Positions 18,097-21,000 of a stretch of 64,000 bases of DNA are shown piece after piece. The DNA comes from an uncultured Clostridia bacterium. GTDB taxonomy: Bacteria > Bacillota > Clostridia > Christensenellales > Borkfalkiaceae. The position numbers and the translations under genes are program-made. The first letter of the stretch is position 1, and every line of letters starts with the position of its first letter. The stretch is taken from contig CANQUL010000003.1 of assembly GCA_947627015.1 (NCBI GenBank), positions 2,895-66,894 on the forward strand, given 5' to 3'. The notes beneath the pieces are model-generated. The model had not been told where the DNA came from. It worked only from the letters and a program-made list of their open reading frames with translations, and ran no database searches.

Positions 18097-18226
18097 GGGG
18101 GTTGGGAAAAATAATTTCCGAAATCGCCGATTTTTTTCTTTTGCGCCCGTTCGGCTCGGAATGACGTAGCCTTGGCGCCCCTTATAGGGGAGCTGTCGAG
18201 GCGTAGCCGAGACTGAGGGGTTTATG

Positions 18227-19327
18227 TCAGCGGCTGCTCTTTTCGCGATTATGCTCCTTGCAGAGCATCTGCAGATTCTCGGGAACGGTCCTGCCGCCCT
18301 CGCACCACGGGGTGATGTGATCGCCCTCCATTTCGCCGAACTCGTAGTGCGTTCTCGCGCGGCCTTCCCTTGCGCAGAGGGGACAGATCCCGCCCTGCCG
18401 CTCATAGGCCTGCCGTTTTTGGCTCTCGGTAAAGGCCCGGATGTTCAAAAACTTCTCTTTCCCCGTCAATATATATGAATAGATCCCCTTCTTGTTCGTC
18501 ACGTCGTCGTCTGCCATGAGCGCGGCGATTTTTTGTTCGAGCGCTGCCGTGTCAAAGGTCTGCGCGTGAAATTCATCGTACAGCGCACCCCAACGGAGTC
18601 CCTTCATCTCTCTCCGATATTTGACGAAGGTGAGCTTCACCCATTCGATGACGTTCCGGAAATACGTCCAGAGTTCATTCGCATTGGGGACCTGTTGATG
18701 CGCCGACATGTAGTCCTCGATGTGTCCCTTGCTTCTCCAATCGAGCGCGGTCTCCAGAAGTTCCTGCCGGATGGGGGAGCCGCTCACATAGTCCTTGGCA
18801 AGGAGGTACGCGGCGCAGTTCGTCTTGCTGAAGACCGACTTCGCATGCGTGAGCCACGGCCCCGTGTAGGTCGCGTTGCGGAGTTCCTGCTCGGTGAGCC
18901 GTTCCCCCGCGATATTGATGATGCGGAACCAATCGAGCTTTTCCCGGTCGTTTCCCTCGCAGAAGTAGACGAGCACCTTGTAATCGAGGATCTGCTGCTG
19001 TTCGGGTTTGGTCAGATTGTGGAAATAGCGGCTGTCGATCGAGAAGTCCCCCTTCACAAATTGACAGAAACTGATCGTGCGCTGCTGGCCGTCCAGCACT
19101 TCGAAGGTCCCGTCCTCGTTCTTGACCCAATACATGACGTTGAGGGGGAAGTCCTTTCTGATGGTGTCGATGACGGCGTTGCGCTTCTTCTCGTCATAGA
19201 CGAATTCGCGCTGATACTTGGGACGGATGTTGAGTTTTCCGCCGTAGCCGACGACGCCCTCCTCGGCGTTGTCGACGTAGTTTTCCGTGATCTCGCCGAC
19301 CGTGATCTCGTGCAGTTGGATTTTCAT
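18227..19327 (-). CDS. DUF262 (ParB/Srx-like, DGQQR motif) - HNH endonuclease fusion; putative nuclease of the island
   Basis: N-terminus KYQREFVY...VLDGQQRTISF (DUF262 signature). C-terminus CPLC...EGDHITPW...NLQMLCKEHNREK (Cys4 HNH). The start overlaps the MTase stop (ATGA). 366 aa. Confidence 0.85.
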   Translation of the reverse strand: MKIQLHEITVGEITENYVDNAEEGVVGYGGKLNIRPKYQREFVYDEKKRNAVIDTIRKDFPLNVMYWVKNEDGTFEVLDGQQRTISFCQFVKGDFSIDSRYFHNLTKPEQQQILDYKVLVYFCEGNDREKLDWFRIINIAGERLTEQELRNATYTGPWLTHAKSVFSKTNCAAYLLAKDYVSGSPIRQELLETALDWRSKGHIEDYMSAHQQVPNANELWTYFRNVIEWVKLTFVKYRREMKGLRWGALYDEFHAQTFDTAALEQKIAALMADDDVTNKKGIYSYILTGKEKFLNIRAFTESQKRQAYERQGGICPLCAREGRARTHYEFGEMEGDHITPWCEGGRTVPENLQMLCKEHNREKSSR

Positions 19328-20388
19328 GACTTTCTCCTGTGTCTAATGAATAATCTTTTGAATTTCTTTTTTCCTTTTAACACTGCTTGCGGAATTTTAC
19401 TTATCGGGTTCCACAGTCCGCAAGAGAAACCGCGCCCCTCGCTCTCAGTGGCTCCGATGATTTCAAATTGTTCGGGATTATATTTGTCGAGAAAGGTGAT
19501 GGGAACGCCCATCACGCCGTCATAGTCATAGGGGATATCCGAAGTCTTGGAAACCTCGATCGCGTCGTAATTATCATACTTCGGATATTCTGTGGGGGAG
19601 TATTGTTTATAGAGGGTGAGAAATTCGTGCCGCTTTGCCGTATCAAGATCGGTAAACCAACATACATTCCGGAATTTCACTAAACCTGTCTCTTCATTAT
19701 AAACTCCGTTTGCCCATTCGCGATGATCAAAATTTGTAACCCTGAAATACGCGTTTCCGTTGGGGAAGCTCGGCCCGAGCCACATCTTATTCGCTCTGAT
19801 GAGCGGAAAGGTTTCCTTGTATGTGATCGCATTCTGCGGCCCGATGATCAAGAACTTCTTCTCATACTCCATGAGCTGTGCGACATACTCGCGGAAGAGC
19901 GAAAAGGGCGGGTTGGTTACCACGGTATCCGCCTCCTTGAGGAGTTCGATGCACTCCGCGGAACGGAAATCCCCGTTGCCCTTTAAGAGGGACAGCGAAT
20001 TTTTCCTGTTTTTCAGCAGCCACTCGATGTCGTAGAGATCGACCGCGCCGTCCCCGTTGTAGTCCTCGATCTCGGTGATCTCGATCCGATACGCGCGGCG
20101 GGTTTGGTTGGGAACCGTCCGCTCGTTTCCGAAAAACGACATCTGCGTGTGGGCGATCGGAGAGGGGTCATAGCAGGTCGCGATGAGCTTTTTGAGCCCC
20201 AAAAAGTTGAAGTTCATCGCAAAGTATTTGAAAAAGTTGCTCTCGTACGGGTCGTCGCAGTTGCAGAAGATGACCTTGCCCGCAAGCTGTTCCTTGTAAT
20301 GCTTGAGCTCTGCTTCGATATCCGAAAGTTGGGTGTAAAACTCGTCCTTTTTGTTTTTTCTTGCATTCCGCAGGGTATCCGTCGGCAT
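19324..20388 (-). CDS. EcoRI-family N6-adenine DNA methyltransferase
   Basis: N-terminal KDEFYTQLSDIEAELKHYKEQLAGKVIFCNCDDPYESNFFKYFAMNFNFLGLKKLIATCY closely follows the M.EcoRI-type N-terminal block as I recall it. Catalytic TNPPF is present. The gene is visibly AT-rich. Confidence 0.85.
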   Translation of the reverse strand: MPTDTLRNARKNKKDEFYTQLSDIEAELKHYKEQLAGKVIFCNCDDPYESNFFKYFAMNFNFLGLKKLIATCYDPSPIAHTQMSFFGNERTVPNQTRRAYRIEITEIEDYNGDGAVDLYDIEWLLKNRKNSLSLLKGNGDFRSAECIELLKEADTVVTNPPFSLFREYVAQLMEYEKKFLIIGPQNAITYKETFPLIRANKMWLGPSFPNGNAYFRVTNFDHREWANGVYNEETGLVKFRNVCWFTDLDTAKRHEFLTLYKQYSPTEYPKYDNYDAIEVSKTSDIPYDYDGVMGVPITFLDKYNPEQFEIIGATESEGRGFSCGLWNPISKIPQAVLKGKKKFKRLFIRHRRKS

Positions 20389-20485
20389 GATTTCCTCGTG
20401 TGTATAAAATTATAGTATCAAAATTATAACACGATAGTTTTAATCTGTCAACGCTACAGTTATGAGATATTCGCAAAAAAGTGCG

Positions 20486-20505
20486 TAAACTAAAACTAAA
20501 GTTTA
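20486..20505. promoter_or_regulatory. candidate operator (C-box-like palindrome) upstream of the HTH gene
   Basis: TAAACT-N8-AGTTTA, ending 17 nt before the HTH start codon, inside the 134-bp divergent region. Confidence 0.35.
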
Positions 20506-20522
20506 GAAAAAGGGGCTGCCAT

Positions 20523-20813
20523 ATGGATCGTCACGATGTTGCAAAACGGATACGGGAACTCAGGGAAGAGAGAAAGATGACGCAGAACGCGCTGGCATAT
20601 CAGGCAGGCGTTTCACCCACCTATATCTATCAGTTGGAGCGCGGCGAAAAGAACCCGACGGTCGAGTACATCGACAACATCTGTTGGGGGCTCGGGATCA
20701 CGATCGAAGAATTTTTCTCCACAAAAAAAGAGGAGCCGAAGGAAACCGACAGGCTTTCCTCGCTCACCTCCGAGCAGAGACAGCGGCTGAACCACTTTTT
20801 GAACAGCTTGTAA
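20523..20813 (+). CDS. XRE-family HTH regulator (controller/C-protein-like), 96 aa
   Basis: M15 of ORF 20481..20813, RBS AAAAGGGG. HTH_3 pattern IRELREERKMTQNALAYQAGVSPTYIYQLERGEKNPTVEYIDNICWGLGI. Divergent from the MTase-nuclease operon. Confidence 0.85.
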   Translation: MDRHDVAKRIRELREERKMTQNALAYQAGVSPTYIYQLERGEKNPTVEYIDNICWGLGITIEEFFSTKKEEPKETDRLSSLTSEQRQRLNHFLNSL

Positions 20814-20892
20814 TGCTCTGCCTTCCGCGTCCGCAGCCCGGGGCATGACCCCTCGGCGGCAGGGCAGACGGCAGCTCTCTTACAGAACAAAA

Positions 20893-20920
20893 AGACGGAG
20901 CAGGAGACCTGTTCCGTCTT
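20893..20920. terminator. bidirectional terminator between the HTH gene and tRNA-Arg
   Basis: GACGGAGCAG / CTGTTCCGTC stem (one mismatch), T6 downstream on the plus strand and A5 upstream. Confidence 0.55.
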
Positions 20921-20923
20921 TTT

Positions 20924-21000
20924 TGGTGCACCCGGCGGGGATCGAACCCACAACCTTCAGCGTCGGAGGCTGACACGCTATCCAATTGCGCCACGAGTGC
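20924..21000 (-). tRNA. tRNA-Arg (anticodon CCG), CCA encoded
   Basis: Hand-folded cloverleaf. Acceptor GCACTCG/CGGGTGC, D stem GCGC/GCGT, anticodon stem TCAGC/GCTGA with loop CTCCGAC. T arm GTGGG-TTCGATC-CCCGC, discriminator A plus CCA. 77 nt. Confidence 0.95.

Follow-up and report, generated by a model that had tools for sequence, protein, structure and literature searches.

A probable restriction-modification cassette pairing an EcoRI-family methylase with a DUF262-HNH nuclease in a Borkfalkiaceae genome

The 64,000-nucleotide stretch of DNA analysed here (the window), from contig CANQUL010000003.1 of an uncultured Clostridia bacterium of the family Borkfalkiaceae, carries beside a tRNA-Arg(CCG) gene a cassette of three intact genes (2,587 bp, window 18227-20813). 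These encode a modification subunit (M) of the EcoRI family of N6-adenine methylases, a restriction subunit (R) in which a DUF262 domain is joined to an HNH nuclease domain, and a small regulator with a helix-turn-helix (HTH), transcribed divergently. The methylase and the nuclease very probably constitute a restriction-modification (R-M) pair. This is based on matches to PADLOC models, a synteny retained in nearly all loci surveyed, overlapping genes, the occurrence of the same pair on plasmids and in a phage, the broken state of the only orphan nuclease gene, the invariance of catalytic and nucleotide-pocket residues, and the methylome of Sulfitobacter indolifex. Taken as a whole, the likely arrangement is an R-M system in which the methylase directs targeting and the nuclease is gated by a nucleoside triphosphate (NTP). 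A first-pass annotation of this DNA had offered an R-M system with a ParB-like/HNH endonuclease as one reading, and the comparative evidence backs it. The two subunits and their junction are as follows.

18227..19327, minus strand: restriction subunit (DUF262+HNH nuclease), 366 amino acids (Pfam, PADLOC)
19324..20388, minus strand: modification subunit (EcoRI-family N6-adenine methylase), 354 amino acids (Pfam, PADLOC)
19324..19327, minus strand: ATGA overlap of methylase stop and nuclease start (read from the sequence)

The methylase-nuclease pair and its family

The positions of the open reading frames (ORFs) agree with those first annotated, and the three-gene layout, its coordinates, the ATGA overlap and the neighbouring tRNA-Arg(CCG) were all recovered from the sequence, while Pfam profile searches bore out the domain calls (EcoRI_methylase, DUF262, HNH and HTH). 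The methylase matches EcoRI_methylase (PF13651) over its full length (E 3e-139) and the PADLOC model MTase_II (‘Type II methyltransferase’, E 5e-121). It is 49.8% identical to the true M.EcoRI (E. coli pU90-3) and its TNPPF motif, at residues 158-162, is invariant; a sequence search of solved structures gave no match for it. The methylases partnered by DUF262-HNH proteins also carry a loop, DxNGDGxxDxxD(I/V)xxLLKN (about residues 108-127, window 20008-20067), which is absent from M.EcoRI and resembles the calcium-binding repeat of dockerins and EF-hands. This loop might bind calcium or serve as a place where the nuclease docks.

The nuclease consists of an N-terminal DUF262/ParB-Srx-like domain, a helical middle part and a C-terminal zinc HNH domain. 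It matches Pfam GmrSD_N/DUF262 (PF03235, E 1e-19) and HNH (PF01844, E 1e-8), and the Pfam search gave no match to DUF1524 (PF07510). Nearly the entire protein (residues 1-365 of 366) aligns with positions 1-371 of 372 of the PADLOC model REase_II PDLC03418 (‘Type II restriction enzyme’, E 4e-138), which is likewise matched by 40 of 40 diverse family members. Across 40 nuclease sequences from many phyla the motifs KYQRE (residues 37-41) and DGQQR (79-83) are invariant, as are H337 and N351, and D336 and N360 are conserved in at least 90%; the cysteines C315, C318 and C356 likewise show at least this degree of conservation. The motifs singled out in the first-pass annotation (KYQRE, DGQQR, TNPPF, CxxC and DH...N...N) are all present, and invariant or nearly so across the family. 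The HNH domain was, however, described there as a Cys4 type, and its residues (C315, C318, D336-H337, N351, C356, H359 and N360) instead form a zinc site of the kind CxxC...CxxH, the fourth ligand of which (H359 here) varies across the family between H, C and D.

Structural comparisons gave a similar picture at lower resolution. The AlphaFold model of the nuclease, built from 17 close sequences, is weak (mean predicted local distance difference test score, pLDDT, 62.8) and confident in the HNH domain only. Weak Foldseek matches (E 5e-3 or worse), which lend qualitative support only, relate the N-terminal part to ParB, Noc, KorB and sulfiredoxin and the C-terminal part to Gme-HNH and McrA. When the nuclease family profile was compared with PDB sequences the HNH part alone was matched (Gme HNH 4h9d, E 1e-6). 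The closest other DUF262 protein by sequence among the PADLOC models is NsnA of the Menshen system (E 6e-25, residues 30-165), a model also matched by 40 of 40 family members.

Pairing with a methylase is the rule for this nuclease family, which PADLOC already catalogues as R-M. The best 80 genome loci, chosen by nuclease similarity, come from Clostridia, Chloroflexota, Patescibacteria, Bacteroidota, Pseudomonadota, Actinomycetota, spirochaetes and one DPANN archaeon, and in 79 of them an EcoRI-family methylase lies upstream on the same strand (within 370 bp in 76). The stop and start codons overlap in 42 of the 62 complete pairs, and in 59 of the 62 the gap is at most 25 bp. The coupling of a methylase to a DUF262 protein, which had been called paradoxical there, is routine; that annotation had held that a catalogued, routine partnership with this methylase family would speak against its view, and such a partnership, as far as cataloguing goes, is essentially what was found. 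The sole locus without a methylase, L024 (6001-7083), has a premature stop at nuclease codon 100; its neighbours encode a GNAT acetyltransferase, a DUF2971 protein and a YhcG-type nuclease.

The same overlapping M-R pair is found on plasmids of four phyla and in the Flavobacterium phage laban6-1. The nuclease family is matched by over 8,000 clusters at the 90% identity level and by about 500 at the 50% level (E up to 1e-30), the latter almost all 360-420 amino acids long, and the nuclease is carried by at least 596 of 185,579 species-level genomes. In the source annotations its homologues appear only as ‘DUF262 domain-containing protein’ or ‘HNH endonuclease’. Some loci depart from the simple pair. 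An extra co-directional ORF lies between the methylase gene and an intact nuclease gene in L044 (5125-5985, 286 amino acids) and in L076 (1589-4429, 946 amino acids), and these could represent additional subunits or inserted genes. In the Lactiplantibacillus plantarum plasmid p9 (L084 2180-4282) the EcoRI-family methylase domain resides within an ORF of about 700 amino acids annotated as a cytosine-5 methyltransferase (dcm), possibly a fusion of two methylase types.

The only published comment found on the M-R architecture concerns a pair on plasmid pDSM14862_g of S. indolifex (DSM14862_04460 and its neighbour; PMC9025767). In this organism GAATTC is unmethylated and a strain-specific N6-methyladenine (m6A) motif, GGCATC, has no REBASE match, and the authors suggest that the pair is ‘a novel restriction-modification system’ (PMC9025767). 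The S. indolifex pair is orthologous to that in the window (nucleases 56% and methylases 54% identical) and has the same 4-bp overlap, but it is plasmid-borne, lacks the HTH gene and has other variable methylase segments. In the window itself GAATTC occurs 27 times and is not depleted. Several palindromic hexamers are depleted against Markov expectation over the whole window, namely CTTAAG (1 versus 6.7), AAGCTT (2 versus 11.9), CTGCAG (4 versus 15.3) and CTATAG (0 versus 3.5), possibly a trace of further R-M systems in this lineage. As a guide to the target sequence, depletion of motifs over the 64 kb was given up, the signal being too weak.

Source of DNA specificity and competing explanations

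In the proposed mechanism the methylase would mark host DNA with m6A at a target sequence, and the nuclease would cut or nick unmarked DNA through its HNH site. Most likely the nuclease would not read the target itself, M directing R in the manner of Type I and Type III systems, and the nucleotide-binding pocket of R (KYQRE and DGQQR) would gate the cut. What the analysis shows is the gene content, the coupling, the conserved synteny, the catalogue membership, a mosaic M and a natural M-R fusion; methylation-sensitive cleavage, formation of an M-R complex, NTP dependence and a repressor role for the regulator are inferred.

The mosaicism became apparent on comparison of 63 M-R pairs (the window and 62 loci). 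The nuclease is conserved evenly and has no hypervariable segment; the methylase shows three variable patches between conserved catalytic blocks, and two of its segments, at about residues 201-245 and 312-354, are mosaic and recognition-like. When the window is compared with L001, identity reaches 83-92% in the methylase cores but only 33% and 19% in these two segments, the nucleases being 88% identical. In an isospecific EcoRI-type pair used as a control the same segments are 92-93% identical, the methylases being loose only in residues 78-135. In six close pairs (nucleases 98% identical in the case of L028 and L029), nuclease identity in 30-residue windows never falls below 0.60, as against 0.00-0.13 at the lowest points of the methylase. 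Recognition-like modules of the methylase thus appear to be exchanged between close relatives, whose nucleases stay 85-98% identical, without a matching change in the nuclease, which is how Type I and Type III systems behave but classical Type IIP systems do not. This suggests, at a little less than even confidence, that it is the methylase and not the nuclease which chooses the DNA target. Two other lines of argument were abandoned. The higher overall conservation of the nuclease does not count on its own, the classical EcoRI pair showing the same trend (R 91%, M 83%), and a search for co-variation of nuclease and methylase segments gave only a weak and unconvincing partial correlation (0.25, nuclease residues 76-105).

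A natural single-chain fusion of EcoRI_methylase, DUF262 and HNH (L091 5001-7067, protein P0278; also P0392) supports a physical cooperation of the two subunits. It comes from a 33%-GC organism using genetic code 4, and the ORF is taken as real since the TGA codons within its frame coincide with Trp positions that are invariant. In the methylase half of this protein TFPSF replaces TNPPF and CNAGDG replaces CNCDDP, and no other methylase is present in the 8 kb seen around the fusion. Its methylase half may therefore only recognise DNA.

Several points weigh against an R-M system with methylase-directed targeting. The loci were selected by nuclease similarity, which inflates the conservation of the nuclease, and as the EcoRI control also has R more conserved than M, the weight is carried by the regional mosaic only, in which segments 201-245 and 312-354 look like candidate specificity determinants. 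The fusion protein, with its degenerate TFPSF motif and no nearby methylase, may be decaying. The structure model of the nuclease is poor beyond the HNH domain, and an XRE HTH gene lies directly upstream of the methylase in just 12 of 57 assessable loci, so that about 80% of cassettes lack it. The literature that could be searched yielded no member of the DUF262-HNH family tested by biochemistry or genetics, the papers on PADLOC leave unstated from which sequences the R-M models were built, and the assignment of GGCATC to the S. indolifex pair is a tentative conjecture of its authors.

An alternative is that the system is a classical Type II one, in which the DUF262-HNH protein alone recognises and cuts an unmethylated sequence, with no need of NTP or methylase, and in which the family shares one or few specificities. 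The PADLOC label and the separate, adjacent M and R genes conform to a Type II layout, R exceeds M in conservation in the EcoRI pair too, and the roughly 180 nuclease residues that separate the HNH domain from the ParB-like core could bind DNA. We nevertheless regard this alternative as unlikely. Methylase segments are swapped among close relatives with no corresponding swap in the nuclease, which lacks any hypervariable region, and the invariant nucleotide-pocket motifs would be needless in a plain Type IIP enzyme. Furthermore, the motif tentatively ascribed to the S. indolifex orthologue is asymmetric and apparently methylated on one strand only (PMC9025767), a state that would be intolerable for a simple Type IIP enzyme once the DNA has replicated.

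Another explanation, of SspE-like or Type IV-like character, is that DUF262 senses m6A, either as a licence of the host or as a foreign target, and that the methylase is not simply protective. All characterised DUF262 nucleases (GmrSD, BrxU and SspE) respond to DNA modification, SspE requiring a phosphorothioate mark of its host to act (PMC10952713), and a nuclease indifferent to methylase specificity would fit the conservation pattern. On the other hand, a nuclease attacking m6A would be suicidal beside an m6A methylase that is obligatory in the loci surveyed, and licensing would exert no obvious pressure to diversify methylase specificity. The C-terminal nuclease is moreover a PF01844 zinc HNH and not DUF1524, and a comparison of the family profile with the PDB (E up to 1) retrieved neither BrxU nor SspE. 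Together these points make such a sensor very unlikely. Least probable of all is a selfish addiction or mobility module that acts by post-segregational killing or HNH-promoted insertion, with defence incidental: the sharply bounded, integrase-free 2.6-kb cassette, its unrelated contexts, its presence on small cryptic plasmids and in phage, and its place in a variable hot-spot beside a tRNA gene (relatives adjoining tmRNA or tRNA genes) would agree with this, but classical R-M systems behave likewise, so that an R-M mechanism remains compatible, and no target-site duplication or empty site was found that ties the nuclease to insertion.

The reading in which the methylase directs an NTP-gated nuclease can be carried further, to a new class of R-M system, though this step is a doubtful one. 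In such a class the monomeric EcoRI-type methylase would be an exchangeable specificity subunit for a generic HNH nuclease gated by NTP through a ParB/Srx fold. The nuclease would be a functional analogue of the Type III Res subunit, its helicase motor replaced by a nucleotide switch or clamp of ParB type, perhaps communicating between hemimethylated asymmetric sites such as GGCATC.

Regulation, composition and genomic setting

The remaining features of the cassette and its borders are listed below.

20523..20813, plus strand: divergent XRE/HTH_3 regulator, 96 amino acids (Pfam, PADLOC)
20423..20451, minus strand: promoter of the M-R operon (consensus match and alignment)
20408..20504, no strand: putative operator boxes (intergenic alignment)
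18117..18226, no strand: junction DNA on the nuclease side (homology limits)
20814..20923, no strand: junction DNA from the HTH stop to the tRNA 3' end (read from the sequence)
20924..21000, minus strand: tRNA-Arg(CCG), hot-spot landmark, outside the system (ARAGORN; Rfam tRNA 61.7 bits)

A consensus sigma-70 promoter would drive M and R as a bicistronic operon, M being translated first and R through the ATGA overlap. This overlap, at which GGAG precedes the nuclease start, implies translational coupling of the nuclease to the methylase. The promoter (TTGACA, a 17-nt spacer, TATAAT and an extended TG; 12 of 12 consensus positions) lies 35 bp upstream of the methylase start, and both hexamers are invariant across five aligned cassettes (the window, L001, L002, L003 and L006). 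A second promoter-like site (TTCCCA-17-TATAAT, 10 of 12 matches) is seen as a consensus match only in the 3' part of the methylase gene (19477-19505, minus strand), about 150 bp upstream of the nuclease start, and could allow methylase-independent transcription of the nuclease.

The regulator matches Pfam HTH_3 (E 6e-14) and, among other PADLOC models, Control_protein (E 4e-13), and its ATG at 20523 is backed by the N-termini of its homologues. Orthologues 69-80% identical occupy the same position in L001, L002, L003 and L006. All five aligned cassettes conserve boxes of the form ACT-N2-(A/C)GT at 20408-20416, 20430-20439, 20452-20461 and 20486-20504. These boxes, considered putative operators, lie to either side of the -35 and -10 hexamers and the +1 of the M-R promoter and directly adjoin the start of the HTH gene. 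As the boxes overlap a consensus promoter, repression rather than activation is suggested: the XRE-type regulator would bind the repeated ACT-N2-AGT boxes over the promoter and limit M, R and probably itself, which would make it a probable repressor both of its own gene and of the M-R promoter. The first-pass annotation had likened this protein to the controller (C) proteins of R-M systems. The Control_protein match and the conserved palindromic boxes agree with that, as does the likeness to the PvuII, AhdI and Esp1396I systems, which also combine a small XRE HTH protein with repeated short palindromic boxes. The arrangement does not, for a C gene classically lies upstream of R and is co-transcribed with it, whereas the HTH gene of the window lies on the other strand and is transcribed away from the M-R operon. 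Occurring in about one fifth of cassettes, as the low count of HTH genes upstream of the methylase indicates, the HTH is an optional accessory.

The foreign composition claimed for the cassette holds, as its GC content is 0.514 against a window mean of 0.609 (standard deviation 0.022 in equal-sized windows, 0.3% of which are this low); the background of the window is, however, about 61% and not the 73% first given. The cassette is the lowest-GC stretch of the window, adjoining tRNA-Arg(CCG), and an Rfam scan of the window gave no RNA match besides tRNA. Nucleotide homology to the nearest cassettes (L001, L002 and L006) spans 18227-18233 to 20776-20813 and does not extend beyond, which indicates that the three genes move as a unit. 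In a relative, L087, whose protein resembling elongation factor G (EF-G) is 85% identical, the same order of mnmA, tRNA-Arg(CCG) and EF-G-like gene encloses a different cargo, two large genes with Flg_new repeats (L087 400-5907), and L087 is homologous to the window up to 18116 and again from 20922. The interval from tRNA-Arg(CCG) to the EF-G-like gene is thus a variable cargo hot-spot. The low GC content, the confinement of homology to the cassette and the other cargo at the same tRNA site point to a foreign origin, and the best explanation is that the cassette is a horizontally acquired, self-contained R-M unit.

As first annotated, no integrase is encoded between the EF-G-like gene and mnmA in the window, and no direct repeat of the tRNA 3' end or att-like repeat was found. 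The cassette, 110 bp from the 3' end of tRNA-Arg(CCG), is placed like tRNA-targeted integrative islands but lacks their integrase and far-boundary repeat. Exact look-ups of the flanking proteins revealed no empty site, and relatives 83-85% identical carry other cargo (L087) or other neighbours (L088 and L089), so that no precise insertion scar could be defined. Abutting the nuclease end is a 55-bp element (18170-18224), single-copy in the window, which is 93% identical to an unrelated intergenic region of L087 (11640-11694). Beyond the nuclease stop this element includes a GGGG...CCCC hairpin, and it may represent either a terminator or an intergenic repeat of the dispersed kind. Another potential terminator is the T-rich hairpin found at about 20889-20923, on the way from the HTH stop to the tRNA; the junction in which it lies (20814-20923) is common neither to the cassette relatives nor to L087. 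Related HTH-bearing cassettes lie within about 300 bp of a transfer-messenger RNA (tmRNA) or tRNA gene (tRNA-Arg ACG, tRNA-Glu), as in L001 (5398-5784), L004 (4161-4237) and L021 (4109-4183), which hints at a preference for integrase-free insertion beside small RNA genes.

Relation to known systems and meaning for the family

The cassette combines features of several known systems. It shares with the EcoRI system the methylase family (PF13651), in which TNPPF and the N-terminal blocks are kept, and the character of a small two-gene R-M module that is mobile. The nuclease of EcoRI has, however, a PD-(D/E)XK fold, whereas the partner in the window is an unrelated DUF262+HNH protein; the gene order is R then M in EcoRI (pU90-3, Klebsiella plasmid) but M then R with an overlap here; and the window methylase differs from M.EcoRI in its extra DxNGDGxxDxxD loop and in its variable segments. 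GmrSD, BrxU and SspE resemble the window nuclease in having an N-terminal DUF262 domain with DGQQR followed by a His-Me finger nuclease, but they carry DUF1524, stand alone and are modification-dependent, whereas the window nuclease carries the zinc PF01844 HNH, is much shorter (366 amino acids) and is paired with a methylase. Menshen NsnA, its nearest DUF262 relative among the PADLOC models, acts together with an ATPase and a nuclease of the OLD family and lacks both HNH and a cognate methylase (PMC12065111). Reviews of DUF262 systems (GmrSD, BrxU, SspE, Menshen, Dazbog and PD-T4-2) include no DUF262+PF01844-HNH protein paired with a methylase. In the logic presumed for the window pair, Type III (Mod/Res) and Type I systems come close, with swappable recognition modules in the methylase and a conserved NTP-binding nuclease indifferent to them, and the asymmetric GGCATC with one-strand methylation, tentatively assigned to the S. 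indolifex orthologue, would also fit Type III. Unlike Type III, the window pair has no superfamily 2 (SF2) helicase-like ATPase and no PD-(D/E)XK domain, only DUF262 and HNH being found, and its methylase is of the EcoRI family and not a Mod protein.

For the host genome the cassette is nothing unusual, an acquired element of a defensive or selfish kind. The family to which it belongs is, however, very common and counted as Type II by defence-finding tools, yet no member has apparently been characterised, and the window compared with L001 and L006 constitutes a ready-made natural swap experiment. Should specificity come from the methylase and gating of the cut from the ParB-like domain, classical restriction would be connected through this family with nucleotide switches of the ParB type, and the family would provide a compact nuclease retargetable by the swapping of methylase modules.

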